Source: a phage. Taken from it: a stretch of DNA of 64,000 nt. Shown piece after piece: positions 3,416 to 62,109 of the stretch. The stretch lies in NCBI GenBank assembly GCA_019326865.1, contig GCA_019326865.1_4101.1. One strand, written 5' to 3'. Below the pieces are notes generated by a model. It had not been told where the DNA came from and did not search any database. It was given only the letters and a program-made list of their open reading frames with translations. Within the stretch, counting starts at the first letter, position 1, and each line of letters begins with the position of its first letter. The translations under genes were made by a program, and so were the position numbers.

Positions 3416-3816
3416 ATAACGAAGTTCAAATTATCATAACTCCACCTATACAAAGTCTTGATGTATCTATTAGTGATTTTTTAGAAAAATATTATGAATG
3501 GTTTAATAATGATTCTACCATTTATGAACATTCATTACCAGATGGTTACGTTGAGCTTATAGAATTAAATTCAAAAACACTATACTTCTGTGTTGAATAC
3601 AATGATTATATGACAGATGAAGCATATCGCTTTCGTTGTACATTGTATCCGAATTATTTTTCAATAGGTTATAAAGACTACCAGTACTGCACCACTAACT
3701 ATAGTGTAGAGGAAGAATTTCAGTACAATTTACTTTATCCAGATTTAGATTATACTATTGCAGTACTGTTATCTAAAATTATGGATTTTTATAAAGGTAA
3801 ATACAGTGCAGCCTAA
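3412..3816 (+). CDS. hypothetical protein
   Basis: 134 aa; SD AAGGGGAGAA; ATGA stop/start overlap. Confidence 0.5.
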   Translation: MNNEVQIIITPPIQSLDVSISDFLEKYYEWFNNDSTIYEHSLPDGYVELIELNSKTLYFCVEYNDYMTDEAYRFRCTLYPNYFSIGYKDYQYCTTNYSVEEEFQYNLLYPDLDYTIAVLLSKIMDFYKGKYSAA

Positions 3817-6261: not shown

Positions 6262-6699
<438 letters not shown>

Positions 6700-30867: not shown

Positions 30868-32052
30868 ATGGCTAGTGGGATACGATTAACACAAGAAGAA
30901 GCTGAAAAATTAGTAGCGAATAGATGTTTAGAACAAAATTATACATATAAACCTTTCACTTATATTAACACTAAAACAATATTAGAACTTAAATGTGATA
31001 ACTTTGAACATGAAGAATGGAAATGTAAATTTAGTAAATTCATTTACAAAAGAACTGGGTGTCCAGAATGTAAAGGAAGAAATTCTTTAAAAGAAAAAAC
31101 AGCAAGAACTAAAGTTCATGAAATATGTGAATTAAAAGGATATACTTATGAACCATTTGATTTTAACGGTGCTATAGGAACAAAAATAATAATTCATTGT
31201 GGAGTTGACTCCCATAAACCACATGAAACTAATTATAATTCTTTAGTTAATAAGAAAAATGGATGTATTGAGTGTGGTGGAAAGTTAAAATTAACCCAAC
31301 AACAAGCAGAATTAAATGTAATTAACATATGTAATACTACTGGATATACTTATAAACCTTTTGAATATAAAAATAATAGAACTAAAATTACATTAAAATG
31401 TTGCAATCCAGACCATGATGAATTTAGTTTAAGTTATGATAAATTTGTATATCAAGGTAATGGGTGTGTAAAATGTGGAAATCAATCCACAGCTAGAAAA
31501 CTTTGTCTTTCACAAGATGAATCAATTAAAAGGCTTAATGAAATTTGTACATCTAAAGGATATACTTATAAACCATTTATATATAAAAATGTACATACAT
31601 TAATTACATTAAAATGTTCAGAATGTGAACATCCTGAATGGACAACTCGATATCAAAATATTGTTCAAAAGCAAAGAGGTTGTCCAAGTTGTAGTCGAGG
31701 TGGATATGACCCAAGTAAACCTGGTTATTTTTATATACATCGAGTTCTAGGTAATGGTAGGATATATTATAAATTTGGTATAACAAACAATTATATATAC
31801 AGATTTGAACAATATAATAAGAACTTATTTAGAACTGAAAAATATAAAACATATTACAGTACTGATGGTATTTTAATCAAAGAACTTGAATATTTTATTA
31901 AACATATGAGTGGCATAAAAAGAAAAGTTATTGATAAAATAAATTATTTGGACGGGTATACTGAAACAATCAATGAATCAGAATATGAAAAATTAATAAA
32001 AATAATTGAATCATATAATGTACAAGAACTTGATGTGAACAGTATTAAGTAG
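30868..32052 (+). CDS. GIY-YIG/T5orf172-like nuclease with four N-terminal Cys-containing repeats
   Basis: Four ~60-aa repeats each with YTYKPF and GCPEC/GCIECG/GCVKCG/GCPSC; C-terminal PGYFYIHRV...IYYKFGITNN...RFEQY. Confidence 0.5.
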   Translation: MASGIRLTQEEAEKLVANRCLEQNYTYKPFTYINTKTILELKCDNFEHEEWKCKFSKFIYKRTGCPECKGRNSLKEKTARTKVHEICELKGYTYEPFDFNGAIGTKIIIHCGVDSHKPHETNYNSLVNKKNGCIECGGKLKLTQQQAELNVINICNTTGYTYKPFEYKNNRTKITLKCCNPDHDEFSLSYDKFVYQGNGCVKCGNQSTARKLCLSQDESIKRLNEICTSKGYTYKPFIYKNVHTLITLKCSECEHPEWTTRYQNIVQKQRGCPSCSRGGYDPSKPGYFYIHRVLGNGRIYYKFGITNNYIYRFEQYNKNLFRTEKYKTYYSTDGILIKELEYFIKHMSGIKRKVIDKINYLDGYTETINESEYEKLIKIIESYNVQELDVNSIK

Positions 32053-32095
32053 TATAATAAATAATAATATATTATATGTTAAAGGAGGGCACACG

Positions 32096-33337
32096 ATGCC
32101 TAGTGATTATAATAATGGTGATATGAAGCACAGAAATGGTGCAATTGTTCAACATTCAAAACGCAAGTCGGAGTACCGCCCTGCTGGAAACTATCATAGT
32201 GGTAGAAAAATGAGTCGTAACCAAAGCACTGGTGCACAAGGTGTAGAAAATGCAAAGCCAGGTGAAGTAACAGATACTTCCAAAATGAATCAACATGAAA
32301 AATTAAAATACATGAATGCTTTGGGATTACTTAATGCTCATCAAAAAGAGCAACTAGCTGCAATGGATAAAGCACAAGAACGACCAGAAGCAGCAGAAGC
32401 CCCCGCACAATCAAAAGCGACTAACCCTGTCAAAGAACTGTCTGATAAGTTAGGTAAGATCTTTGCAAATAAACCCCAACTTATTCAAGGTATTGTCAAA
32501 GAATTGCAATCTGTACCTAAAGAAGAATTAAAAGTCAAAGCACAAGCTGTTCTGGATGCAATGAAAGGAAATACCAGTACTGAACCAACCGAAGTATTCA
32601 GTACTATTATGCGTGCACTGGAAGGTAAACAACAAGGTGAAGAACGTGGTGATGAAGTAAGTCTTGAACGTGTTCTTAAAACATTTGATAGTATTGGGAA
32701 AGAAGACCGTGTTAATGCACAACAGGTTAAAAATGTACTAGCAAAATTGGAAAACCGTCTAGAAGGTAAAGATGATAAGATTAAATTGGTATCCGATGCA
32801 GTTGAAAATGCACTTAAATCTTATGTACAAGGTGAAAAGAGTCGTTTTGTAACTGCTATGGATGCTGCATTCAATACTATGAAAAAGTACGAAGCGGATC
32901 ATGGAGAGAAGGTAACACGAGATGGTTATTTGATGCGTGATGATGAAGAAGGTGCAGTGGAACAGAATGATGTTCATTCTGACGAAGATATTGATGACAT
33001 GGAAGCAGAACTGTCACAGGACCGCCAAATGACTGAAAAATCTCACAATGAACTAAAGAAATTAATGCAGTGGGTTGCAGACGTAGGTGAAAAGGCGGGT
33101 GCTGACAAGAAGAGTATCAACCGAAACCTAAGTTGGATTAAAGATAAGGTTGGTAATAACGCTCGTAAACTACAAAAAGCATGGACTGATGTAGTGAATG
33201 GTGCAGTAGATATTGACGTTGAATCTGGTGAAGCATATGATTATGCATTGATTACACTTGATGATTCTTTTCGTGACTACGAAAAAGGAAACGTGACTCC
33301 TTGGGAAAAAGACATAATGAGCAAATACGGTAAATGA
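32096..33337 (+). CDS. hypothetical hydrophilic Lys/Glu-rich protein
   Basis: 413 aa; SD AAGGAGGG; EKLKYMNALGLLN motif shared with 30405 ORF; visibly higher GC than neighbours. Confidence 0.55.
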   Translation: MPSDYNNGDMKHRNGAIVQHSKRKSEYRPAGNYHSGRKMSRNQSTGAQGVENAKPGEVTDTSKMNQHEKLKYMNALGLLNAHQKEQLAAMDKAQERPEAAEAPAQSKATNPVKELSDKLGKIFANKPQLIQGIVKELQSVPKEELKVKAQAVLDAMKGNTSTEPTEVFSTIMRALEGKQQGEERGDEVSLERVLKTFDSIGKEDRVNAQQVKNVLAKLENRLEGKDDKIKLVSDAVENALKSYVQGEKSRFVTAMDAAFNTMKKYEADHGEKVTRDGYLMRDDEEGAVEQNDVHSDEDIDDMEAELSQDRQMTEKSHNELKKLMQWVADVGEKAGADKKSINRNLSWIKDKVGNNARKLQKAWTDVVNGAVDIDVESGEAYDYALITLDDSFRDYEKGNVTPWEKDIMSKYGK

Positions 33338-36078: not shown

Positions 36079-36106
36079 TTGACAAACACATTCAGTACTG
36101 TATAAT
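36079..36106 (+). promoter_or_regulatory. sigma70-type promoter, family A, followed by stem-loop
   Basis: TTGACA-N16-TGTATAAT with TTCAGTACTG spacer; downstream hairpin GGGGATGA/TCATCCC. Confidence 0.6.
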
Positions 36107-36153
36107 GCTTATCAAGGGGATGAACTTCTCATCCCTACAATCGAGGAACGACC

Positions 36154-44456: not shown

Positions 44457-44791
44457 TGGAGTATTTTATTGATTTACTGCCGTGGTATATGAAAGTGAGT
44501 ATTTTATACTATATTATTAGTACTGGATTCTACTTCCTGATGTGGTTTTTTAAACGACCAATTTCAGTGTACATTGCTAATAACATGCTGCAATTAAAAT
44601 TACACGCATGGTTTTTTATGGCGATGTTTATGCCTATTATTCACTACTCAATGATTAGTATAGGTTTACGTTCTAATGGTGAACCAATTGTATTAGTATT
44701 CTATTGGGGTTCAACTATAGTATATTTCGGTTTGCTATTGTTCCCCATCATTCATAAATTACGTGCTAAAGTTCCTGATGCGAGGTATTAA
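44453..44791 (+). CDS. small 3-TM membrane protein, family member
   Basis: C-terminus ...KLRAKVPDARY; ATGA overlap. Confidence 0.5.
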   Translation: MMEYFIDLLPWYMKVSILYYIISTGFYFLMWFFKRPISVYIANNMLQLKLHAWFFMAMFMPIIHYSMISIGLRSNGEPIVLVFYWGSTIVYFGLLLFPIIHKLRAKVPDARY

Positions 44792-45105
44792 TGGATATCG
44801 TAACATTGATCTACACGTTGTATTCATTCTATTTCATTATGTGTTGGGTTGGATTTTTATTTGTACTCAAGATGTTTGATTATGTTGAAAAACAGATAAA
44901 AGATTTTTGTATTCCTTTTATCGGTTCAACCATTATTAGTGTTTCTTGTGTTTATTTTTTAGTGTTTGATCCACCAGATAACACTGCGATGATTGACTTC
45001 ATGTTACTACCAACCACTGTAATTTTTTTATGTAGTCTGATGCCACCTATTAGTCGTGGATTAACTGAATTTAGACGCAAACAAAAGCGTAAAAGAGGGA
45101 TGTAA
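44791..45105 (+). CDS. small 3-TM membrane protein, family member
   Basis: C-terminus ...RRKQKRKRGM. Confidence 0.5.
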   Translation: MDIVTLIYTLYSFYFIMCWVGFLFVLKMFDYVEKQIKDFCIPFIGSTIISVSCVYFLVFDPPDNTAMIDFMLLPTTVIFLCSLMPPISRGLTEFRRKQKRKRGM

Positions 45106-45473
45106 TGGAAATTGCTCTTATTATCTTAACTGCTATGCTGTTTATTAGTACATTGGTTATAATTGGCAAATTCTTTTGTGTATCATTTTTAGAAACGGTA
45201 TACGATGAAATTGCTGATGATTATGAATTACACGCCGGATTTTTCATTACGTATTGGCTTAGTTTATTTTGTCTAGTCATTGTTTGGATTTTACATATCT
45301 TTAAATGGGGTATGGTGGACGGTGATCCTATCATGGCAATTATTGTTCTAGTGTTTGGTATCCTAGGTGGTGCAGTACATAATATGATGGTTATTTGGCA
45401 AACTGTTCAATGTGTATTGGTTCCTTATTTCGAAAAAATGCACAGTACAATTAAAAAACGTAAACGAGGTTAG
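45105..45473 (+). CDS. small 3-TM membrane protein, family member
   Basis: C-terminus ...KKRKRG. Confidence 0.5.
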   Translation: MEIALIILTAMLFISTLVIIGKFFCVSFLETVYDEIADDYELHAGFFITYWLSLFCLVIVWILHIFKWGMVDGDPIMAIIVLVFGILGGAVHNMMVIWQTVQCVLVPYFEKMHSTIKKRKRG

Positions 45474-45474
45474 T

Positions 45475-45837
45475 ATGAACGGGATTGAATTATCTTTCAT
45501 TGGTCAAATACTAGTAATGGTGAATACTTTCTTTTTCTCACTTATTGCATTAATGTGCATTGGAAAGTATTTTCATAAACAACCATTCTCAAATTTATAT
45601 GATGTAATAAAAAAGAAATATAGTCCTGCACATAGTGTACTTATTTGCAGTTTCAATTTTGGTTTTGTTGTATTAATAATTGGATTGTTAACATCAACGT
45701 CAAATGTAATGATCTTCGGTCTTATGATCTGTTCATTGGTATTAGCAGTAATTGTATGTTGTTTAGTACTGCACCTTGTAGTACTATTATATATAAAGCT
45801 CGTTGAAATCCATCAACGTTTAGGTATGAGGAAATAA
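45475..45837 (+). CDS. small 3-TM membrane protein, family member
   Basis: ATG 45475 1 nt after upstream stop; track start 45412 rejected. Confidence 0.5.
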   Translation: MNGIELSFIGQILVMVNTFFFSLIALMCIGKYFHKQPFSNLYDVIKKKYSPAHSVLICSFNFGFVVLIIGLLTSTSNVMIFGLMICSLVLAVIVCCLVLHLVVLLYIKLVEIHQRLGMRK

Positions 45838-45838
45838 T

Positions 45839-46210
45839 ATGAGTTACCGTGAGATATTTTCCATTATTTCAATTATTATGTTCAGTGCTGGGACATTGGT
45901 GTGGGTATTATATTTTTTCTGTGTATCACCAGTGTATAATATGTTATGTAATATTAAATCAAGTTCTGGATATATGACTTTTATGATCTTTATGGGATAT
46001 TATTGTCTAAGCATTTTAGGTGTTGTTTTGGTTGTTATATTTGATGTAGGGCCAAATAAGGATGGTCTGAAAATGTATGAGTTAATAACTATGTTTGGGT
46101 GTATGATACCAACTGCACTAATGTTTGTAGCTATTGGTGCTGGATGTATAAAGTTATACAATTATTTAAAATCCATTCATCATTCCATTCATAATAAACG
46201 TATGTCATAA
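45839..46210 (+). CDS. small 3-TM membrane protein, family member
   Basis: C-terminus ...IHNKRMS. Confidence 0.5.
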   Translation: MSYREIFSIISIIMFSAGTLVWVLYFFCVSPVYNMLCNIKSSSGYMTFMIFMGYYCLSILGVVLVVIFDVGPNKDGLKMYELITMFGCMIPTALMFVAIGAGCIKLYNYLKSIHHSIHNKRMS

Positions 46211-46251
46211 TAAAAATCCAGTACTGAATAGTACTGGACTAATAAGGAGTT

Positions 46252-46902
46252 ATGATGAAATCAAAATTAGGTTTGTTTTATGGAAACTACTTCATTAAAC
46301 AGCGTAAATTCATAAAAAAATACTTCTCCACAGAGAAATCTAGTCCTATAATTTTTAAAAGACCAAAATATAATTTTTACTTAGCAGGTGCTAAACAGTC
46401 TAAGAAATTCATTACATTTTTAAATAAAAACAAAATTAAAGCTTCTTATGTTGAAACTAGAAAGAACTCATCGATAATTCCTGGTGATTTCATTGAATAC
46501 GGATGTTTCAATATTAAGTACAATGATAGCACATACTGTATGGATATTGATTGCAATACATCAAATCTTTTTAACATTGTAATAAATCCATCGAAACAAT
46601 ATAATGTTTATGGTGATTCAATTATCAAATTAATAAAAAACAAAGATTGGTTTGATTTTGAAATAAATGTTTTAGATGAAAATTATGATGAAGTTCCAGT
46701 TAACCCTGAAATATGTGATATATTAAACAGTTTAAAAGGTAGTAGCTACAATATACCATCTGATTTAATGTTTCAGTACTCTTTAATACATAAAGATATT
46801 GAACATTATATTGTGTGTGCTAAAATCTTGAATTATCTGTATGATGAATTTAAAATGAGTTCTAAAATAACAGCATATACTCTTTATAATATTTCTATAT
46901 AA
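46252..46902 (+). CDS. hypothetical protein
   Basis: 216-aa ORF, convergent with RCC1-like array. Confidence 0.5.
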   Translation: MMKSKLGLFYGNYFIKQRKFIKKYFSTEKSSPIIFKRPKYNFYLAGAKQSKKFITFLNKNKIKASYVETRKNSSIIPGDFIEYGCFNIKYNDSTYCMDIDCNTSNLFNIVINPSKQYNVYGDSIIKLIKNKDWFDFEINVLDENYDEVPVNPEICDILNSLKGSSYNIPSDLMFQYSLIHKDIEHYIVCAKILNYLYDEFKMSSKITAYTLYNISI

Positions 46903-46916
46903 TTTAAAATATTAAA

Positions 46917-46952
46917 GCCAGTACGAGAGCACTGGCTTTAATATTATTTTTT
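46917..46952. terminator. bidirectional terminator between convergent genes
   Basis: Hairpin GCCAGT-ACGAGAGC-ACTGGC flanked by A-run and T-run. Confidence 0.55.
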
Positions 46953-48089
46953 CCAAGGAAGTAACGAAGTTGGAATCTTGATAGGTATATTTGATGCAAC
47001 AACATCAGGAAAATTTGCATCTCCACAAACATACAAATTATCGATTTCGTCTATCAATAATGTATAGTTGTAACTTCTACAAAAACCACTTAAGACTCTT
47101 CCCTCTAATGCAGATAAATTCATTTCAGTGAATTGAGTGATATATGTTTCATTTGAACCAACACCACATTGACCATTAGCATTTATACCACAAGTAAGCA
47201 ATTTATTATTGTTTTGAATTACACATGATGGTCCAGCAAGGTTCGTACCTAGTTCACCTACAACATTAACTTCACCTTTTAATGATAAATTTGGGATCAC
47301 TGTACTCATTGGGACTCGAGATGTATTTCCGACACCTGCTTGCCCTGAGCCATTAGTGGATGCTACTTTAACAGTACCGTCATTAAGAAAAATATAAGAT
47401 GTTTCGATTGTATTAACTGCTTGAGTAGCTGATGTTATTGACGTATCCTGTTTGAATTTAAGTACATTTGTCGTTGTTGAACCAGAGATAAATGTAGCAC
47501 CTGCGTACCAATATGTTCCATCCTGGAGTACTAAACCAGTACTTCTAATTGAACACCCAGCACTTCGAACATTTTCTATATGACTATATGTAAAGGTTGA
47601 TACGATTGAAGATTCACCATTACCGAACACCCCACCAGTACCTGCACCACAGAAAAACCATTTACCGTTTTTCAAAAATACACGCATACAAGCAGAAATA
47701 ACCACACTATCAATATCACTTGCAGTTACACCAAAATCGGTAAATAAATGAGTTATATCAATCCAATTACCACCAGTATTTGATGGGAGATGTGGAATTA
47801 CAACTCTAGTCCCTGTGTACCAGATTGTATCATCATCTTTAATAACAAGCGTACCTTGAACACCACCCCAATACCTGGTTACATTAGTATTAACAAGTGT
47901 CCACTCATTAGATGATTCCGTTGAGCCATTACCACCTTGACCATATGATGATGAACCGCACCAGTATAAATTGCCATTTTTATTTAAATAAAATTTTGCA
48001 TCAGCCGAGCATTGTAATCTGTATTTGAATACGGTTTTTGGTGCTGGTGCAATATTTGCATACTTAATCATTCTTCCAAAAGGTAACAT
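46944..48089 (-). CDS. RCC1-like beta-propeller repeat protein, paralog 1
   Basis: N-terminus MLPFGRMIKYAN; blade-like motifs LYWCGSSSYGQGGNG, LLTCGINANGQCGVGSNE. Confidence 0.6.
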   Translation of the reverse strand: MLPFGRMIKYANIAPAPKTVFKYRLQCSADAKFYLNKNGNLYWCGSSSYGQGGNGSTESSNEWTLVNTNVTRYWGGVQGTLVIKDDDTIWYTGTRVVIPHLPSNTGGNWIDITHLFTDFGVTASDIDSVVISACMRVFLKNGKWFFCGAGTGGVFGNGESSIVSTFTYSHIENVRSAGCSIRSTGLVLQDGTYWYAGATFISGSTTTNVLKFKQDTSITSATQAVNTIETSYIFLNDGTVKVASTNGSGQAGVGNTSRVPMSTVIPNLSLKGEVNVVGELGTNLAGPSCVIQNNNKLLTCGINANGQCGVGSNETYITQFTEMNLSALEGRVLSGFCRSYNYTLLIDEIDNLYVCGDANFPDVVASNIPIKIPTSLLPWKK

Positions 48090-48162
48090 AATTTCTCTCC
48101 TTCATTCATTATACTGTATTTAACCCAATTAAGAAAAGCCAGTATCAAGTACTGGTATTTTA

Positions 48163-49512
48163 TTATTGTAATGGAATTTCAGTGAGTGTTTTATATGTAC
48201 TTCCGTTATACACCCCTCTCCAATATACTTTACCATCAGTACTAACCACTAATAATCCATATGTTGTAAACCCAAGAGTACCACCAACATACATAGCATC
48301 TTTGATTCTAATACCAATGTCTTCATATGTAAATGACGCGACTGCACCCGCTTGCCATGAAGGACTAGCGTAGTAATCACTATAAACACCATGTGCTTTA
48401 TATATTGATGTTGTTCCTGGTTCAAAAATTACAGTTCCACAGTAGTTCATTCGTATTTTAGTACTGGATGAAGTTGGTACATTTATACCTACGTCATCTT
48501 TTATCCCTGTGGTTAGGACGTTAAAACCACCCGCCACACGGTTGACGTCATTCGCACCGATTAAATACATACCAACGTTGTAGCCCATATAAAACACACT
48601 AGAGCTTCCATTCCAGAAAGAAAAACCACCACCATTCCCACAGCGATATAGTTGTGAATTTGAGCAGTACATCATACCTTCGTTTGTCGCATCAAATTCA
48701 TCTGCTTTTCCTATTGTAGCTACTGTAGTCCAAGTTTTAATTACTTGGTTTGTACTAGCTGGTGTTTGTATACCATATCGTATATTATACCCTTTACCGA
48801 CTATTGTACCATCTTCTAATTTGGCATAAAGTACAGGTCTATTACCAACAAAATACATATTATTGTGTGACATGTCTATTGTGCATCTTAATGAAACTAC
48901 TTTTTGTTTCAATTGATTATCTTTAGTAAAAGAAGTAAAGTAGTAATCTGATGTTGAGTTGTTTATTAAACCTTGTATTGACAACCCCATATACCAGATT
49001 TCTCCATTACTGTTCAATGCTGCCAAAATACAACTATATTTTGAAGTATATGCTGGGGTTACTGATGTTGCTGGTCCTTTATCATATCCACCACAGAATA
49101 CCATCTCCACAACTTCACCCACGTTAGCAAAATAAGAAGATACATTGATAAAACCATTTGTTATAAAAGGTGCTGTATTTATACTTGAATGTGTGAATAT
49201 CCCATTTGCATATACACCACAAAAATGATATGAACCATCATTATCTTGGACTATTATTCCATTTGATAGTAACCAAAAATTGTTTACATTTTTTCTTACT
49301 AATTCGATTCCTGCCCCATTAGTTGGCGTTATACCAAAAGAAACATATTTTGTTTGACCAATTCCATATAAATTTCCATTTGATGCTAATATTGCACCAA
49401 ACCAATTACCACCACCATTCTTGTTATGACCCATACCTATAGAATCAAATTTCTTAACAGTAGGAGCTTGTACTTTGTTCCCATAATTCACCATTCTTCC
49501 AAAAGGTAACAT
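48163..49512 (-). CDS. RCC1-like beta-propeller repeat protein, paralog 2
   Basis: N-terminus MLPFGRMVNYGN; G/S/T/N-rich repeats. Confidence 0.55.
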   Translation of the reverse strand: MLPFGRMVNYGNKVQAPTVKKFDSIGMGHNKNGGGNWFGAILASNGNLYGIGQTKYVSFGITPTNGAGIELVRKNVNNFWLLSNGIIVQDNDGSYHFCGVYANGIFTHSSINTAPFITNGFINVSSYFANVGEVVEMVFCGGYDKGPATSVTPAYTSKYSCILAALNSNGEIWYMGLSIQGLINNSTSDYYFTSFTKDNQLKQKVVSLRCTIDMSHNNMYFVGNRPVLYAKLEDGTIVGKGYNIRYGIQTPASTNQVIKTWTTVATIGKADEFDATNEGMMYCSNSQLYRCGNGGGFSFWNGSSSVFYMGYNVGMYLIGANDVNRVAGGFNVLTTGIKDDVGINVPTSSSTKIRMNYCGTVIFEPGTTSIYKAHGVYSDYYASPSWQAGAVASFTYEDIGIRIKDAMYVGGTLGFTTYGLLVVSTDGKVYWRGVYNGSTYKTLTEIPLQ

Positions 49513-49584
49513 ATTTCCCTCCTTTATTCATTATACTATATTTAATACTAAAAGAAAAAGCCAGTATCAAGTACTGGCATTATG

Positions 49585-50694
49585 TCATTTTGGTAAATTA
49601 ATTTTAGTAAAGGCTGCAACATCCTCGATTGCACCAGGAATTGCGTAATACGATCCAGTACTATATACATCTCCGTCTTTGGTTAATATTGATGTTAAAC
49701 CATCACTAAAAAGAACATCCCTAATCTCACTAACTTCAACGGGTAATTGTAAATTAGTAGCACTATATATTGCACCAGTTTGAGAATTGTTTAATCCCAA
49801 ACCACGGTTCGCCCCAACACCCTTCTGATATGTACTAGTAATTACCATTTGTGTAGCAGTATTTAAGGCAGGTGAATTCGTCATAAACAACGGTGAACTA
49901 TTAGGCAAAGTACTTGCAGGAACTGCACGAAATGTAGTTGTATCTGAACTAAGAAAGTTTGGCGTTTGACCACATACGAAATATGATGTACCATTATAGT
50001 AATTAAATGCATTACCACCAATGACTGCATCGATTACACCAGAGCTACGTAATCCCCACGTGTTAATTTGTGTTCGGTTCCCCGTGCCATGCTGACCCCT
50101 GTCATTCCACCCAGAACTATATAACTTATTATCTAATGTAATATACATACTGTCATTTGCATTCGTCATTACTTTACGCACATTAGTAGCACATTGAGTT
50201 AATGTGTAAATTGATGATGAACCAATACCTAAAGCACCACGATATCCATTAGCTCCTGCACCATAGAGTACTGAACTAGTGCTAAGTACAAATATTAAAC
50301 CATACGAACATACAATATTAGCAATTTCACTCACTGGTATAGCACTGGTAAACCAATTAGTTCTTTCAACTAATACTGTGCTGTAAGAAGTAGTTGTAGA
50401 CGATGTGAACCAATATGTTTCCCCTGATGTCCATATAGTATTATCATTTTTAATAATAACAAGTGCACGATCACCTACGAAAAAATTAGAAACATCTGCA
50501 CTTACTAATATCCATGAAGATACCGTGTTTTTATTACCATTTCCAGATTCACCACCTTGATTTCTACCTATGTAATATAAATCATGTGAATCAGTTAATA
50601 AGAATTGACCCTGTGTAGATGCACCAACTTTAATTATATTTTTAGGACCAGGTACAATATTCCCATAATCAAACATTCTTACAAAAGGTAACAT
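49585..50694 (-). CDS. RCC1-like beta-propeller repeat protein, paralog 3
   Basis: Start set to MLPFVRMFDYGN after SD GGAG; motifs YYIGRNQGGESGNG, YSSGWNDRGQHGTGN. Confidence 0.6.
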   Translation of the reverse strand: MLPFVRMFDYGNIVPGPKNIIKVGASTQGQFLLTDSHDLYYIGRNQGGESGNGNKNTVSSWILVSADVSNFFVGDRALVIIKNDNTIWTSGETYWFTSSTTTSYSTVLVERTNWFTSAIPVSEIANIVCSYGLIFVLSTSSVLYGAGANGYRGALGIGSSSIYTLTQCATNVRKVMTNANDSMYITLDNKLYSSGWNDRGQHGTGNRTQINTWGLRSSGVIDAVIGGNAFNYYNGTSYFVCGQTPNFLSSDTTTFRAVPASTLPNSSPLFMTNSPALNTATQMVITSTYQKGVGANRGLGLNNSQTGAIYSATNLQLPVEVSEIRDVLFSDGLTSILTKDGDVYSTGSYYAIPGAIEDVAAFTKINLPK

Positions 50695-50768
50695 AACTAA
50701 AATCTCCATATAATAATTATAATGTATTTACAAAAAAATACCAGTACGTATTTCAGTACTGGTATCAT

Positions 50769-51950
50769 TTATGGTAAAATGATAGATTGTAACGAACTCA
50801 TACCCAATGCTGGAACACTAGCCTGTGGTGCTGGAGAATTCAATTTTGGTGATGAAACCGCATATGACATTCCTGAACCCAAATCTGGATCAAAAACTAC
50901 AGCACAATAATTCCCACTATATATAAGTCCATTCTTGTATCCTTGTGCACTTTGAATGCATTTCGTGAACGTACCAATATCTGTCGTGGCATTTATTAAG
51001 TTCCTCCCACGATAACCGCAGGTGTATATGAAATTATCATCGCCTATGTACATACTAGAATCCCCAGAAGAACTACATAGATACGACATATAAGCACGCA
51101 TGTTTTTAGGAGCAACTGACAATGTACCTGCATAGAATTTATTATTCGAACCCGTAATATCACCATCACCCAATGCACCAAAACTTCCCCAGCCAGTACC
51201 GTAATATCTCTTATCACTCAAAAATATAATACAGTTGTTATTACACATCTTGATTTGATATATCAATGAAGGATCAACCCCAGGGAATGATTCAGTGAAT
51301 GTTAGAACAGCCGGATCAGTACTAGCATTACATTGATGATATGTATTAGTACCAGCGGACAAGATTGTTCCATTAGCTAACAGAATTCTCGCAGTACCAG
51401 TACCAGCAGTACAAGCAACTGCACTTCCTGCACTTCCGGTGTATATTTGTCTGAAAGTAAAGAAACCAACAGTTTTACTTCCCTGCCCACTCCAACCAGT
51501 ATTATCAACTCCACACGCCCATACTGAACCATCTTGCATGATCATCATTACACCAAAGCGTTCTATTGAAATATAAACAATCTTCGTTGTATCAACTGCA
51601 CTAAATCTAGAAGTTATATCAGTCCATACCTTAACACTTACCGCCGTCGCACTGGAAGTAGGATCTTCACCAGCTATCATTATCCTCCCATTGTTAGTAA
51701 GATACATTGTCTGACTATAACCAGTACTACAAAACTTAACACTATCAGTCTCTGGAACTTTTAACCACTCGTTGTAACGTGTTACGTTAGTGTTATTACC
51801 TAACTGATAATAGTTATTCATCCCAGATACATATAACACACCATCCTTTATTAAACTATAAGTCGCACTATAGTCACTACAGGTATAACGTGTACCCACA
51901 GGTCGCTCAACGACGTTCCCGTACTTAACCATTCTCCCAAAAGGTAACAT
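50769..51950 (-). CDS. RCC1-like beta-propeller repeat protein, paralog 4
   Basis: N-terminus MLPFGRMVKYGN; YVSGMNNYYQLGNNTN. Confidence 0.6.
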   Translation of the reverse strand: MLPFGRMVKYGNVVERPVGTRYTCSDYSATYSLIKDGVLYVSGMNNYYQLGNNTNVTRYNEWLKVPETDSVKFCSTGYSQTMYLTNNGRIMIAGEDPTSSATAVSVKVWTDITSRFSAVDTTKIVYISIERFGVMMIMQDGSVWACGVDNTGWSGQGSKTVGFFTFRQIYTGSAGSAVACTAGTGTARILLANGTILSAGTNTYHQCNASTDPAVLTFTESFPGVDPSLIYQIKMCNNNCIIFLSDKRYYGTGWGSFGALGDGDITGSNNKFYAGTLSVAPKNMRAYMSYLCSSSGDSSMYIGDDNFIYTCGYRGRNLINATTDIGTFTKCIQSAQGYKNGLIYSGNYCAVVFDPDLGSGMSYAVSSPKLNSPAPQASVPALGMSSLQSIILP

Positions 51951-52023
51951 ATTTTCCTCCTTTATTCATTATACTATATTTAATACAAAAAGAAATGCCA
52001 GTATCAAGTACTGGCATATTAAT

Positions 52024-53172
52024 TCATTGTATAAATGACATATCTACTTCTGTATAATTAAGAACGTTCTGTCCAGAAATACCACCCATTACTACTATTG
52101 CAAGGCCACAATAATATAATTTTCCAGTATCCGTAAGTATAAGTGATCCAGATGGACTGCGTACCAAATCACACGAACTATTAAAAGAAGTATAAGAAGG
52201 AGTATAGGAGTACTGATTATTATTATTACCAACACCTAATTGCCCAAACCCATTCGATCCAGAAGCATATAGAACTTCATCTGCTTTGACAATATGTGAT
52301 GCCATGTTACCAACACAAGTATATAGAGTATAAACTCCTGAACTCAATAATGTCGGAGTTTTATATTGTATATCTGTAGATGTAGAAGTACCACCTGTAC
52401 CAAATTCGTTCCCATATTGTGCACCGAACTGTTTACCACAAGCGTACAAATTATTATCCGATTTGATAAAAAATGTACTCTGATAACTTACATTAAAATC
52501 TATAACATCCGAAGAAATCATCGTCACCCCAGTAATAGAAGTTTGATTACCCGTGCCCAACTGGTAGTAATAGTTAAAACCACAACCCCATAAAGTATTA
52601 TCTTCTCGCAAATAAATGTTACCAACTGCCTTTTTAACCGAAGTTATAGTATCTACTCTTTTGAATGTGTTAAAAGAATTAATGTTTGTACCATCACCAA
52701 ATGATGATATGTTCGATATATTGTTAACTCCACAACAATACAATGTACCATCTTTTGTTATCAAATTCACCTTCATATCATAAAAACTACTCATGTATTT
52801 TATATCAGAAACATTAACACCACTTGATGTTATCCACGTAGTACAGTCCGTCCACAAAGTTTTTCTATCAGTTACACCAGTGAATGCCTTCGTGTTACCA
52901 GTGATAAAAACTTTTCCAGTACCTTTCTCTTCATACAATTGACAATCACTACTGTTATCTTCCAATAGAACTCGTTTAACATTCTCCGCACAAAGAATAA
53001 ATTTACTCGATGCTACACCTGTACCAGTACCCCAATTCGTCGCAGAAGATGCATACAACTTATCAGTATAAGTATCATGAAGATACATAGAATCACTGGA
53101 ATATATTTTAAAACGCCCTTCTTTCTCAGGTATAATATTCCCGTACTTAACCATTCTCCCAAAAGGTAACAT
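52024..53172 (-). CDS. RCC1-like beta-propeller repeat protein, paralog 5
   Basis: N-terminus MLPFGRMVKYGN; LWGCGFNYYYQLGTGNQTS, YASGSNGFGQLGVGNN. Confidence 0.65.
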   Translation of the reverse strand: MLPFGRMVKYGNIIPEKEGRFKIYSSDSMYLHDTYTDKLYASSATNWGTGTGVASSKFILCAENVKRVLLEDNSSDCQLYEEKGTGKVFITGNTKAFTGVTDRKTLWTDCTTWITSSGVNVSDIKYMSSFYDMKVNLITKDGTLYCCGVNNISNISSFGDGTNINSFNTFKRVDTITSVKKAVGNIYLREDNTLWGCGFNYYYQLGTGNQTSITGVTMISSDVIDFNVSYQSTFFIKSDNNLYACGKQFGAQYGNEFGTGGTSTSTDIQYKTPTLLSSGVYTLYTCVGNMASHIVKADEVLYASGSNGFGQLGVGNNNNQYSYTPSYTSFNSSCDLVRSPSGSLILTDTGKLYYCGLAIVVMGGISGQNVLNYTEVDMSFIQ

Positions 53173-53214
53173 ATCCCCTCCTTATTCATTATATCATATT
53201 TACCCAAAAAACAC

Positions 53215-53243
53215 TTGACACCCTTTCAGTACTGTTGTACGAT
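53215..53243 (+). promoter_or_regulatory. sigma70-type promoter for small-ORF array (diverges from RCC1 array)
   Basis: TTGACA-N17-TACGAT, spacer CCCTTTCAGTACTGTTG. Confidence 0.5.
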
Positions 53244-53268
53244 AGAAGGAATATTAGGAGAACTACAC

Positions 53269-53496
53269 ATGACAAATACCCTTAAGTACTACCTCAATAC
53301 TCTGCCCGACCTAGAGTACGGGAAGTTTCTCGCAGATAGTTCGTGGCTGATTGAGCTAAAAACACATAACAGCCCTGGATGCACCCTTATGATGAACAAT
53401 GCAATTGATACCCTTATAGTGAGTATTTTACATAGCAATATCTACGAGGATAACAATAAACAATTAACAAAAATCTTAGTACTGCTATCTCTATGA
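53269..53496 (+). CDS. micro-protein array member (75 aa)
   Basis: SD AGGAG before ATG 53269; KYYLNTLPD ... LVLLSL. Confidence 0.5.
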   Translation: MTNTLKYYLNTLPDLEYGKFLADSSWLIELKTHNSPGCTLMMNNAIDTLIVSILHSNIYEDNNKQLTKILVLLSL

Positions 53497-53705
53497 ACAC
53501 TATGAGCACTGAACAGTTCTACATCAATGCACTACCAACTAAAAGTCTTCAAGAAAGCTTACTGTATACACAAAAGAATTTTAAAAACTTCAAACGTTGC
53601 CCTAAACTACTGAACTCGTACAGGAATAATATTATAAGAAATGTTTTACAAGGAGAAGAAAGTATGCAATACTATCACATCCTTATCCTTATATTGGAGT
53701 ACTAA
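53493..53705 (+). CDS. micro-protein array member (70 aa)
   Basis: EQFYINALP ... ILILILEY; ATGA overlap. Confidence 0.5.
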   Translation: MNTMSTEQFYINALPTKSLQESLLYTQKNFKNFKRCPKLLNSYRNNIIRNVLQGEESMQYYHILILILEY

Positions 53706-53706
53706 T

Positions 53707-53916
53707 ATGAATACTGAACATAAAGAATTCTACACCAAATACCTCAGTAACGAAGAACAATTGTTTCTAAGAAGTGTATCACCTGTAAGTACCAATACTC
53801 AATTCGGTAGAGATTGCTTTAATAATTGTATACGTAGTACCCTAGAAGCTATCGAATACAATAACAAAAATATTATGTACTCAGGTTTAATAGGACTAAT
53901 ATTCTTCTATGAATAA
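53707..53916 (+). CDS. micro-protein array member (69 aa)
   Basis: MNTEHKEFYTKYL; TAAtATG junction. Confidence 0.55.
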   Translation: MNTEHKEFYTKYLSNEEQLFLRSVSPVSTNTQFGRDCFNNCIRSTLEAIEYNNKNIMYSGLIGLIFFYE

Positions 53917-54103
53917 TCATAAAGATTTCTATGGTAGTAAACTACACAAACATGAACAGCTATCATTCTCTTTAGCACCACCTATGAGAAAGGATAATCT
54001 ATATTATAATTACGATTTCAGGATGGCGACACGTTATGCAATAGAACATCAGTTCCCTGAAACTAAGTACCGCTCTATCCTGAACCTCATCTTTAAGTTC
54101 TAA
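53909..54103 (+). CDS. micro-protein array member (64 aa)
   Basis: MNNHKDFYGSKL ... LNLIFKF. Confidence 0.55.
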   Translation: MNNHKDFYGSKLHKHEQLSFSLAPPMRKDNLYYNYDFRMATRYAIEHQFPETKYRSILNLIFKF

Positions 54104-54150
54104 AAACCGCACCAGGGTCCGAGTACTTTAACATAGTAAGGCTAATTACA

Positions 54151-54336
54151 ATGAATCACATAAGCTACTACTACCAACAACTATCCGACAGAGACAAGTA
54201 CAGCCACAATTCCCATGTATGGTACTACAAACGCGGCAGTATAAGAGACAAACAACATTACTTCTGTATTTCTATTAAAGAAGCACTAACAACTAAGTAC
54301 ACGTACAGAGCAGTACTTAAACTAATCTCTATCTAA
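54151..54336 (+). CDS. micro-protein array member (61 aa)
   Basis: MNHISYYYQQL ... LKLISI. Confidence 0.5.
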   Translation: MNHISYYYQQLSDRDKYSHNSHVWYYKRGSIRDKQHYFCISIKEALTTKYTYRAVLKLISI

Positions 54337-54534: not shown

Positions 54535-55194
54535 ATGAAACTTAATCAACACAGCAAACAATACCTTAAACACTTTAAGTACCTCAACAGTATTCAAGCA
54601 GAATCTTTTACACCAGCATATACGTATCACCCAAATGTACTAAAGAAACGAAATAAAAAGAAAAAATCCAGAAATGTTCTCGTATCTAAGAACCTCAAAT
54701 CGTACTTGAAGAAAAATAATATAGCTCTTGCTTTTATTAATATCTATAATACTGATTTAAAAGTATTGAGTACTAATACCAGCACAAAAGCACTAAAGAA
54801 TGCATCTATCTATATACACATGGATAATATCCCGTGCACTATAATTCTATCTTCCGGGAATGTATACTTCTTCGGGAATTGTAATAGCACCCATGATATC
54901 AGTACTGCACAATTCCAAATCGGAGATATGTACTGCATGGGTTCAGAAAAAATACACGATAACATGCACTTCTTCCAAAAGCAACGTACTAACGAAACTG
55001 ATACAGTACTGCAATTCCTCAAAGAATTACAAAACAAAGAATTATCCGAGGAAGAAGAATTCATGTACAGTACTGTAATCGATAATCCAGGACTCTATAA
55101 AAACGCGTACAAACTAACAAAACATGTACAGGAACTTATCAGTACTGATAAGAAATTCCATCACCTCATTACGTATATTTCAAACTATGTATAA
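54535..55194 (+). CDS. hypothetical protein inside micro-protein array, C-terminal EEEFMYSTV motif
   Basis: 219 aa; basic N-terminal region. Confidence 0.5.
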   Translation: MKLNQHSKQYLKHFKYLNSIQAESFTPAYTYHPNVLKKRNKKKKSRNVLVSKNLKSYLKKNNIALAFINIYNTDLKVLSTNTSTKALKNASIYIHMDNIPCTIILSSGNVYFFGNCNSTHDISTAQFQIGDMYCMGSEKIHDNMHFFQKQRTNETDTVLQFLKELQNKELSEEEEFMYSTVIDNPGLYKNAYKLTKHVQELISTDKKFHHLITYISNYV

Positions 55195-57386: not shown

Positions 57387-57414
57387 TTGACATTATGATT
57401 CAGTACTGTATAAT
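57387..57414 (+). promoter_or_regulatory. sigma70-type promoter, family A, with no ORF downstream
   Basis: TTGACA-N16-TGTATAAT with TTCAGTACTG spacer; nearest downstream ORF of 60 aa or more is 1.3 kb away. Confidence 0.5.
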
Positions 57415-57785
57415 GTTCTACATAGAGAGATGAGTTGCCGCAAACAATTCATTCACTCTACCTCCTGTCGTGAGACAGTACAGAAAAGATAGTTCCTCCT
57501 ATGCGTGGTACATCTTTTTATAACCTCTTTTTTCGTAATATAAACAGTACTGGTATTAACAGAATGGTATCAGTACTGACTTTAATCTAATACATTATGC
57601 CACCAGCACAAGCTGGTGGATTCCCTCTAACAGTATTCAGTACTACATGATAGTCTTCATCCTCCTAGGGTAACATAGTGAGGGCTATTGTGGGAGTACT
57701 GAATACTCCTTTCAAAAGATAGAATAATGGTATAGTACCGACGGATTTTGGGCGTAGTTACCCTGGGTGGATTTTGGACGTAGAT

Positions 57786-62031: not shown

Positions 62032-62059
62032 TTGCAATTAGTTTTTAGTACTGTATAAT
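62032..62059 (+). promoter_or_regulatory. promoter, family B (TTGCAA-N16-TGTATAAT) + 5' hairpin
   Basis: Hairpin AGGGGAGAA-ATG-GTTCTCCCT at 62070-62090. Confidence 0.55.
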
Positions 62060-62109
62060 GTTTTACATAGAGGGGAGAAATGGTTCTCCCTGGTAATGAG
62101 GAAAATACA

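Follow-up and report, generated by a model that had tools for sequence, protein, structure and literature searches.

A conserved N-terminal peptide on tandem RCC1-like propellers of a Rak2-like jumbo phage: a candidate virion-docking tag on reshuffled modules

Five consecutive genes on the minus strand of a 64-kb stretch of phage DNA (GCA_019326865.1_4101.1; the whole stretch, part of a genome of ~350 kb, is called the window below) encode RCC1-like proteins in which a common 12-residue N-terminal peptide, here called the tag, precedes strongly diverged bodies. The tag recurs in related genera on proteins of quite different fold, several of which have been reported from purified virions, and in the window its codons belong to a DNA repeat within which the array breaks between close relatives. 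Our interpretation, to which we assign a probability of about 0.6, is that the tag constitutes a clade-wide virion-docking peptide on interchangeable, probably host-surface-binding modules that are reshuffled via the repeat.

The window region matches the Asteriusvirus jumbo coliphages (121Q, PBECO4, phAPEC6, UE-S1 and others, 348-386 kb), which are Rak2-like; the original prediction, a model's reading of the bare sequence, was mistaken in taking the genome to be T4-type. It had also failed to connect such an arrangement of RCC1-like propellers with any phage system on record. However, multi-copy RCC1-like genes and their detection in virions have been published (PMC5259590, PMC7247149), and the paralog array as such is therefore already known. 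Phage 121Q carries 13 RCC1-like copies and PBECO4 carries six (PMC5259590), while eleven are found in phAPEC6 (PMC7247149). The window genes are members of this Rak2-like multi-copy group (among others 121Q_234-248, the PBECO4 proteins, phAPEC6 gp549-551 and GAP32_001; phrog_4219). Existing annotations of these genes read 'regulator of chromosome condensation' or 'putative DNA condensation protein', and the only published functional suggestion, made by the authors of the phAPEC6 study, is DNA ordering in the capsid (PMC7247149). These genes, named after a eukaryotic chromatin regulator, are among the most variable ones between near-identical jumbo coliphages proposed for therapy; when fEgEco12 and Ecwhy_1, phages of one species, are compared, the RCC1-like family accounts for two of the seven proteins that differ most. 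For the shared N-terminal tag, its non-RCC1 bodies and the cassette-bounded shuffling no description was found in the searchable literature, and both a cross-fold address tag and a shuffling cassette that includes it appear undescribed.

The propeller array

The array (46944-53172, - strand) consists of five open reading frames (ORFs) as called in the window: g1 (52024-53172, 382 aa, 41.8 kDa, isoelectric point (pI) 5.5), g2 (50769-51950, 393 aa), g3 (49585-50694, 369 aa), g4 (48163-49512, 449 aa) and g5 (46944-48089, 381 aa). The g1 protein is 92-100% identical to its annotated orthologs (96.9% to phAPEC6 gp549), and in UE-S1 the orthologs of g2, g3 and g5 are UES1_210 (98.5% DNA identity), UES1_209 and UES1_204 (95% DNA identity). 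All five proteins start with MLPF[G/V]RM[V/I/F][K/N/D]Y[G/A]N. The number of invariant alignment columns is 8 in these 12 positions, against 12 in the remaining ~370, and pairwise identity over the whole length is 20-27%. The mechanically called ORF of g3 begins 15 nt upstream, at 50709 (MEILVMLPF), and the conserved MLPF start is its second ATG; with the starts correctly assigned the N-terminal identity reported earlier persists. The proteins measure 40-49 kDa with a pI of 5.5-8.5, and their richness in Gly, Ser, Thr, Asn and Tyr is borne out, these residues making up 43-47% of each.

The bodies had been read as RCC1-like beta-propellers from their recurring motifs, and the fold assignment holds, be it with different confidence for the individual proteins. 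The AlphaFold2 (AF2) model of g1, built on an alignment of 43 sequences, is all-beta with a predicted local distance difference test (pLDDT) score of 92.1 and a predicted template modelling (pTM) score of 0.89. In a Foldseek search it matched UVR8 (E-value 3.7e-19, TM score 0.74) and then HERC2, RPGR and RCC1, all solved seven-bladed RCC1-like propellers, and on this model g1 can confidently be predicted to be a seven-bladed RCC1-like propeller. The model of g4 is of lower confidence (pLDDT 65, pTM 0.72), with a stretch of ~110 aa (residues ~295-407) that resisted modelling; its top Foldseek matches are all RCC1-like domains (HERC2 RCC1-like domain, E 3e-10), which weakly suggests that g4 is a divergent member of the same fold. 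The structure prediction that had been proposed for each ORF thus came out positive for g1 and, less firmly, for g4, while g2, g3 and g5 were placed by family scans.

Those scans indicate that g2, g3 and g5 are RCC1-like as well. The Pfam WD40_RLD model matched four of the five proteins with E-values of 1e-16 to 3e-22, all under the curated cut-off of the model: the whole-domain model PF25390 scored 58-80 bits in every case against a cut-off of 150. RCC1 (PF00415) and RCC1_2 (PF13540) repeats scored above their cut-offs in g1, g2 and g3, and the best RCC1 repeat match in g5 (20.9 bits) lies just under the cut-off of 22 bits. The Pfam scan gave no match for g4. In contrast, phrog_4219 ('regulator of chromosome condensation') matched all five (E 1.3e-111, 1.1e-45, 7.8e-103, 1.3e-14 and 5.6e-96 for g1 to g5), each alignment beginning at position 419 of the 867 in the profile, and g4 aligns over its full length to the family profile (hhalign, 99.7%, E 3e-26).

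The eukaryotic RCC1 protein is the guanine-exchange factor of Ran and a chromatin binder, in which a basic N-terminal tail and a switchback loop contact Ran and the nucleosome. The host of the phage has neither Ran nor nucleosomes, the pI of the phage proteins is 5.5-8.5 and they resemble RCC1 only in the generic propeller repeats; the annotation 'regulator of chromosome condensation' should therefore be taken as a fold label only. Neither the pI nor the fold context lends support to DNA condensation, the role guessed for the family in print.

Conservation of the tag

The 36 tag-coding nucleotides are found on the - strand at 53137-53172 in g1 (MLPFGRMVKYGN), 51915-51950 in g2, 50659-50694 in g3, 49477-49512 in g4 and 48054-48089 in g5; a synthetic form of the peptide would be MLPFGRMVKYGNIAPAPK. 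A six-frame search did not find the tag elsewhere in the 64 kb. Residues 1-15 of the g1 model have a pLDDT below 50, whereas the propeller averages above 90; by this prediction the tag is disordered and hangs free outside the propeller fold. A role as the 'velcro' strand that closes the propeller was considered and rejected, since the tag is disordered in the model and common to non-propeller folds.

Within Asteriusvirus the tag has the form MLPF[G/A]RM[V/I]KYGN. The corresponding forms are MLPFSRIIQYGN in GAP32, MIPFARMIQYGN in Erwinia phage Hallingskeid, and MLPFPVIVKYGN and MLPFPIISNTN in Yersinia phage fHe-Yen9-03, leading to a clade consensus of 12-14 residues, M-[L/I]-P-F-x-R-[M/I/L]-hydrophobic-x-Y-G-N. 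When the codons of 32 tag-bearers (five phages) were aligned, M1, P3 and F4 proved invariant, and Y10 (28/32), N12 (26/32), G11 (25/32) and R6 (25/32) are nearly as well kept. The synonymous codons of the same residues vary freely: P3 is encoded by CCA in 16, CCT in 13 and CCG in three cases, Y10 by TAC in 17 and TAT in 11, and G11 by GGG in 11, GGA in nine and GGT in five. Since the amino acids are kept while the synonymous codons are free, it appears to be the peptide, and not the DNA, that is under selection. The tag is also kept in Yersinia, Erwinia and Pectobacterium phages where the genes are spaced by 8-12 nt and no intergenic cassette of the kind described below is present; the cassette is therefore a feature of Asteriusvirus and the tag one of the clade.

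The back-translated tag pattern matched only Rak2-like contigs of 348-378 kb in IMG/VR, and in metagenomes it was found in 19 stretches, including arrays of 6-7 units. Two further metagenomic loci (L023 and L027) were discarded as chance matches to the pattern with no ORF behind them. A 40-aa N-terminal profile run against a collection of 5.8 billion proteins recovered only three fragments of 31-45 aa and no new body types. In public annotations of UE-S1 the start of the tag is not always respected: the annotated UES1_208 (L001:13876-15000) begins within the tag, at Met7, and UES1_209 (L001:12660-13784) at an ATG 15 nt upstream of it, the conserved MLPF start being present in both.

One tag on unrelated bodies

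In related genera the tag heads at least four types of body (RCC1 propeller, Kelch propeller, ConA/LamG-like and glycine-rich), often within the same array. Tagged Kelch propellers are Hallingskeid CDS0073 (PF24681, E 6.5e-30) and CBB_550, CBB_552 and CBB_554. Tagged ConA/Laminin_G_3-like proteins (phrog_6011, 'virion structural protein') are GAP32_002, Hallingskeid CDS0082 and CBB_548, 549, 551 and 553. A tandem pair of tag ORFs with a ConA-like look (locus L011) was equated with CBB_536 and CBB_537 by the adjacency of an HNH gene and one 'structural protein' annotation, and not by a profile match. In phage CBB the tag-bearers occupy three separate loci and have several unrelated folds. Homologs of the ConA-like body are present in unrelated phages, where the alignment begins only at residue 10-22, past the tag, i.e. 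these proteins lack it.

The glycine-rich type is represented by UES1_207, a protein of 245 aa, and its 121Q ortholog (phrog_4474). No Pfam match and no meaningful PDB match was obtained for UES1_207, and the idea that it resembles the gp38 adhesin of T2 and S16 was dropped as unsupported. In metagenomic relatives the tag is found on a 245-aa body of unknown fold. Two longer tag-bearers of 667-690 aa (L013:6413-8416 and L019:11752-13824, both - strand) seem, judged by eye, to contain an RCC1-like propeller followed by a Kelch-like one.

Detection in virions

Tag-bearers of three folds have been reported from purified particles of four phages. Mass spectrometry (MS) of phAPEC6 virions identified gp549, the ortholog of g1, together with gp551 (PMC7247149), and GAP32_001 was found in the virions of GAP32 (PMC5259590). 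Electrospray ionisation tandem MS of CBB virions identified CBB_536, 537, 548, 549, 551, 552 and 553 with 2-8 unique peptides each and a coverage of up to 51%, so that seven of the ten tag-bearers located in CBB (548-554 being mapped to gene numbers by annotation) are among the virion-detected proteins. Two tag-bearers, JP4_577 and JP4_581, were present in the JP4 proteome with one peptide each. The suggestion that a conserved tag marks diversified, virion-targeted modules has thereby gained strong, if indirect, support from the disorder of the tag, selection at the protein level, the unrelated folds and the four virion proteomes.

Intergenic cassettes and promoters

The tag codons in the window are the last part of a ~105-nt repeat, in which they are preceded by an intergenic cassette (repeat families D1-D3). 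The repeat is 82-95% identical among most copies, and the bodies share no detectable DNA similarity. The g1/g2 cassette (51951-52017, all positions on the - strand) comprises a terminator-like hairpin (51995-52017), a T-run, the element TAAATATAGTATAAT (51968-51982) and AAGGAGG. The g3/g4 cassette (49513-49578) has the hairpin at 49560-49578, TAAATATAGTATAAT at 49530-49544 and AAGGAGG, and the g4/g5 cassette (48090-48155) has it at 48139-48155 with TAAATACAGTATAAT (48108-48122) and AAGGAGA. A diverged version separates g2 and g3 (50695-50766; hairpin 50737-50766, -16 kcal/mol; TAAATACATTATAAT, 50716-50730; GGAG), and upstream of g1 (53173-53202) the promoter-like TAAATATGATATAAT (53188-53202) and AAGGAGG are found in a stretch with no significant hairpin (z-score 0.23).

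Several parts of the cassette are conserved to the letter. Each of the five genes is preceded by an exact copy of the core TAAATAnnnTATAAT, which has one other occurrence in the window; the longer AATATAGTATAATGAAT is exact twice, with one mismatch before g5 and two before g1, and is diverged before g3. A strong Shine-Dalgarno sequence precedes the ATG by 5-9 nt in all five genes. The hairpin CCAGTACTTGATACTGG occurs three times without change, upstream of g2, g4 and g5, and as the variant CCAGTACTGAAATACGTACTGG upstream of g3. The claim that each copy has its own upstream cassette therefore stands for TAAATAnnnTATAAT and the Shine-Dalgarno sequence, but has to be qualified for g1, which lacks the hairpin, and for g3, the cassette of which has diverged.

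Seen from the other side, g1 to g4 are each followed by a terminator-like hairpin with a CCAGTA...TACTGG stem (-6.6 to -16 kcal/mol, z -2.8 to -6.4), and judged by sequence the cassette hairpins would function as terminator-like elements of the preceding gene. Five hairpins with this stem are present in the window, where 0.01 are expected by chance, and terminator-like sites in general number 12 against 4.2 expected. The array closes behind g5 with a long palindromic, bidirectional terminator-like hairpin (46908-46945; -22.9 kcal/mol, z = -9.2) that faces convergent genes on the + strand. Another hairpin with the stem of the array terminators, CCAGTACT...AGTACTGG, lies outside the array between + strand genes (46218-46237), and this stem may be a genome-wide terminator signature.

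The cassette was originally described as a -10-only promoter of late type. It contains no -35 element, and since sigma-70-type sites in the region occur at chance level (64 found, 59 expected) we make no -35/-10 claim for it. The early promoters of the phage look different. The sequence TACTGTATAATG is present in five identical copies on the + strand, i.e. opposite to the array (6279-6290, 22286-22297, 36096-36107, 57404-57415 and 62049-62060; 0.03 expected by chance), and each copy is part of a canonical promoter with an A-tract UP-like element, TTGACA, a spacer of 17 nt and TATAAT. These sites are probably phage early promoters that drive small + strand genes. Because these five canonical promoters look unlike the cassette, the latter would represent a different promoter class, and this non-early part of the earlier description remains plausible. 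The TAAATA core of the cassette is close to ATAAATA, reported as a late motif in CBB and GAP32 (PMC5259590), and a late or middle timing of expression would fit incorporation into the virion.

Remodelling of the array between relatives

A comparison of the locus across related genomes, which had been put forward as a check, revealed turnover both in copy number, ranging from 3 to 13 among relatives, and in gene content. The window aligns to UE-S1 in two blocks, 53400-51916 at 99.4% and 51951-49478 at 98.5% identity, which overlap by exactly 36 tag nucleotides (51916-51951); UES1_211, located between the blocks in UE-S1, is missing from the window. Beyond 49478, where the g4 tag ends, the homology is lost until 48160, in the hairpin before g5, from which it follows that g4 replaces UES1_205-208. 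The g4 gene is not part of the UE-S1 array, and a match of 93% is found in phage A4. Gene gain, loss and replacement relative to UE-S1 thus have their breakpoints inside the repeats. In the array of 121Q (L006, - strand) the tag ORFs starting at 3628 and 2339 are truncated copies of 68 and 269 aa, which look like decaying units.

Proposed role of the tag and alternative explanations

We propose that the array is a hyperplastic set of stand-alone, probably monomeric ligand-binding modules, which in the window would be seven-bladed RCC1-like propellers, and that the disordered N-terminal peptide acts as the virion-incorporation signal of the Rak2-like jumbo phages. All tags would fit the same socket of a structural protein, plausibly by adopting the form of an amphipathic beta-strand; the i/i+2 spacing of L2-F4-R6-V8-Y10, with G-N behind it, points to a strand that could add to a sheet of the partner. 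This would leave the variable body on display and able to bind, most likely, a glycan or protein of the host surface. The ~105-bp repeat, consisting of hairpin, TAAATAnnnTATAAT, Shine-Dalgarno sequence and 36 tag nucleotides, could give each gene its own non-early expression and at the same time offer the homology for deletion, insertion and replacement of units between close relatives. An external, adhesin-like role is favoured since all body types are binding folds (propellers and ConA-like lectin-type domains), since ConA-like/Laminin G3 domains have been noted on jumbo-phage fibres and as virion components (PMC7824862), and since some Pseudomonas phages appear to have T7-type tail fibres that end in RCC1-like propellers. 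A more far-reaching version, which we advance tentatively, is that one universal 12-residue plug might mount at least five unrelated small binding folds, namely RCC1 and Kelch propellers, ConA/LamG lectin-like and glycine-rich bodies and one body of unknown fold, non-covalently on a common socket and so produce a combinatorial, rapidly reshuffled adhesin coat.

Several points weigh against this proposal. We infer, rather than observe, that it is the tag and not the body that mediates incorporation and that a socket receives it, and the same applies to the external display, the ligand and the timing of expression. Classical receptor-binding proteins (RBPs) are trimeric, whereas the bodies here are small and consist of a single domain. 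Sticky, lectin-like proteins could co-purify with virions and be detected by MS for that reason; only two of the eleven RCC1-like proteins of phAPEC6 were seen, and the JP4 pair was identified by single peptides. Phage CBB has tail hairs yet no RCC1 genes (PMC5259590), which implies that the propellers are not themselves the hair-forming proteins. Finally, the cassettes are 88-95% identical in DNA, and recombination or gene conversion within the repeat could maintain part of the nucleotide conservation of the tag in Asteriusvirus.

The last point can be extended to the view that the N-terminal identity as a whole is a DNA- or RNA-level by-product of the recombination or regulatory repeat, kept by gene conversion or by a constraint on the initiation of translation. 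The identity of the repeat, including its 36 tag nucleotides, in most Asteriusvirus copies next to bodies without DNA similarity would be expected from this, as would the recombination junctions within the repeat and the restriction of codon 2 to TTA or ATA in 31 of the 32 aligned genes. A pure DNA-level view is contradicted by amino acids that are conserved across at least four genera while third positions vary. In addition, the tag is present where the intergenic cassette is wholly absent, and it is kept on several unrelated folds at three CBB loci; we therefore regard this explanation as improbable. We attach equally little credence to a third reading, in which the propellers are intracellular and non-structural, the tag is a handle for a chaperone, an assembly factor or a degradation system, and the virion detection results from carry-over. 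It is true that propellers of the RCC1-like and Kelch kinds serve generally as platforms for protein interaction, as the CBB authors discuss, that the RCC1-like members have a low abundance in MS and that the array adjoins small genes of early type. Carry-over, though conceivable for the low-abundance RCC1-like members, does not sit well with seven independent detections in CBB at up to 51% coverage and with recurrence in four independent proteomes, nor intracellular function with a promoter type unlike the early promoters of the same window.

If incorporation into the virion is accepted, the destination may also be the head. The tag would in that case resemble the capsid targeting sequence (CTS) of the T4 internal proteins and send the tagged proteins as cargo to the prohead core, to be packaged alongside the DNA and delivered into the host for anti-defence or DNA-organising purposes. 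The T-even internal proteins are likewise highly diverse, have only the conserved CTS, an N-terminal address of ~10 residues, in common and are encoded in plastic regions (PMC3012670). The parallel extends to the virion association of the window's protein family and to the hyperplastic array, which is like the T4 internal-protein loci; phrog_6011 is moreover filed under 'head and packaging', and such a role is what the idea of DNA ordering in the capsid (PMC7247149) and the annotation 'DNA condensation protein' imply. On the other hand, the proteins are not small or basic (pI 5.5-8.5), their RCC1 similarity is confined to generic propeller repeats, and with their 25-49-kDa propellers and lectin-like folds they have the look of typical extracellular binders, RCC1-like propellers being found on the tail fibres of other phages. 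Cleavage by the T4-type prohead protease follows Glu, and no conserved Glu site is present within the tag or directly behind it (Glu occupies position 9 in 6/32, and no other Glu is conserved). Targeting to the head is thus considered unlikely, and docking of externally displayed binding modules is retained as the preferred explanation.

Relation to known systems

The closest tested precedent for a docking peptide is found in the Klebsiella phages KP32, K11 and KP34, where a conserved N-terminal peptide of ~29 aa in RBP2 is needed for incorporation into the virion and is transferable to foreign bodies (PMC13352976). As in the tagged proteins, a short conserved N-terminal peptide is carried by otherwise unrelated virion proteins; in KP32-type phages it binds the T4gp10-like branching domain of RBP1. 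The KP32gp38 peptide is unrelated in sequence to the 12-14-aa tag, and the KP32 bodies are trimeric depolymerase tailspikes, present as one RBP2 per phage, whereas here small propellers and lectin-like modules are found with 5-13 or more alternatives per genome.

A fusion of the same fold to an attachment protein appears to exist in Pseudomonas phage Ppr_SeaP1. Its gp12 (L034:2651-5353), a protein of 900 aa annotated as 'outer membrane protein', is encoded at the T7 gp17 position and shows a weak match to the Phage_T7_tail N-domain (E 1e-4, 22.4 bits with a cut-off of 25.2) followed by RCC1 repeats; we take gp12 for a probable tail fibre bearing an RCC1-like propeller. Fold matches in BFVD include a 'tail fiber protein' of Littlefix and a protein of PollyC with a T7-tail-fibre N-domain. 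The fibre propellers share with the array proteins the fold, detectable similarity (28% over 160 aa) and a distal position on an attachment protein. However, they are covalently fused to a fibre of ~400 aa with an N-terminal adaptor, while in the array proteins the N-terminal element is the 12-residue tag alone.

The cassette recalls the promoter early stem-loops (PeSLs) of T4-type phages, repeats of a terminator hairpin and a promoter that flank non-essential genes and at which recombination drives insertion, deletion and replacement between near-identical phages (PMC2839356). In both systems a stem-loop terminator stands by a promoter-like element and is repeated in a hyperplastic region, and the breakpoints relative to UE-S1 (51916-51951, 49478 and 48160) fall in the repeats. 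The strong sigma-70 -35/-10 early promoter of the PeSL is not found here, the array element being without a -35 box and unlike the early promoters of the same phage; furthermore, the array repeat runs 36 nt into the coding sequence and belongs to another phage clade.

The array would accordingly extend cassette-mediated gene shuffling, known from the T4 PeSLs, to a new phage clade, and the principle of a short N-terminal address peptide, known from KP32 RBP2 and the T4 CTS, to that clade and to monomeric propeller and lectin-like modules. If the proposal is correct, the array and the Kelch and ConA-like arrays of the sister genera are candidate accessory determinants of host range or adhesion, and a docking tag could help to explain the 'hairy' or decorated virions of phAPEC6 and CBB. 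It would also provide a 12-residue handle by which foreign domains could be displayed on a 350-kb phage, i.e. a display tag for engineering.

Flanking genes

Two + strand ORFs of ~217 aa that flank the array (46252-46902 and 54535-55194) were considered as possible paralogs of each other and rejected, as they gave no blastp match and belong to different PHROGs. Divergent from g1, five ORFs of 61-93 aa are found on the + strand (53215-54336); the one tested, 53215-53496, had no PHROG match, and the GC skew is negative across this run despite the + strand orientation of its ORFs. On the other side four tandem small ORFs of 104-141 aa (44791-46210, + strand), which are membrane-protein-like and have basic C-termini of the KRKRG type, converge on the array. 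In CBB the 'putative membrane proteins' CBB_540-546 adjoin the tag array in the same position, so that the layout is syntenic with that of the window. Another parallel with CBB is seen further away in the window (30868-33337, + strand), where an HNH/endonuclease-like ORF (phrog_681, phrog_559) lies directly upstream of a 'virion structural protein' (phrog_20398); in CBB the HNH gene CBB_535 abuts the tag-bearing structural genes CBB_536 and CBB_537.

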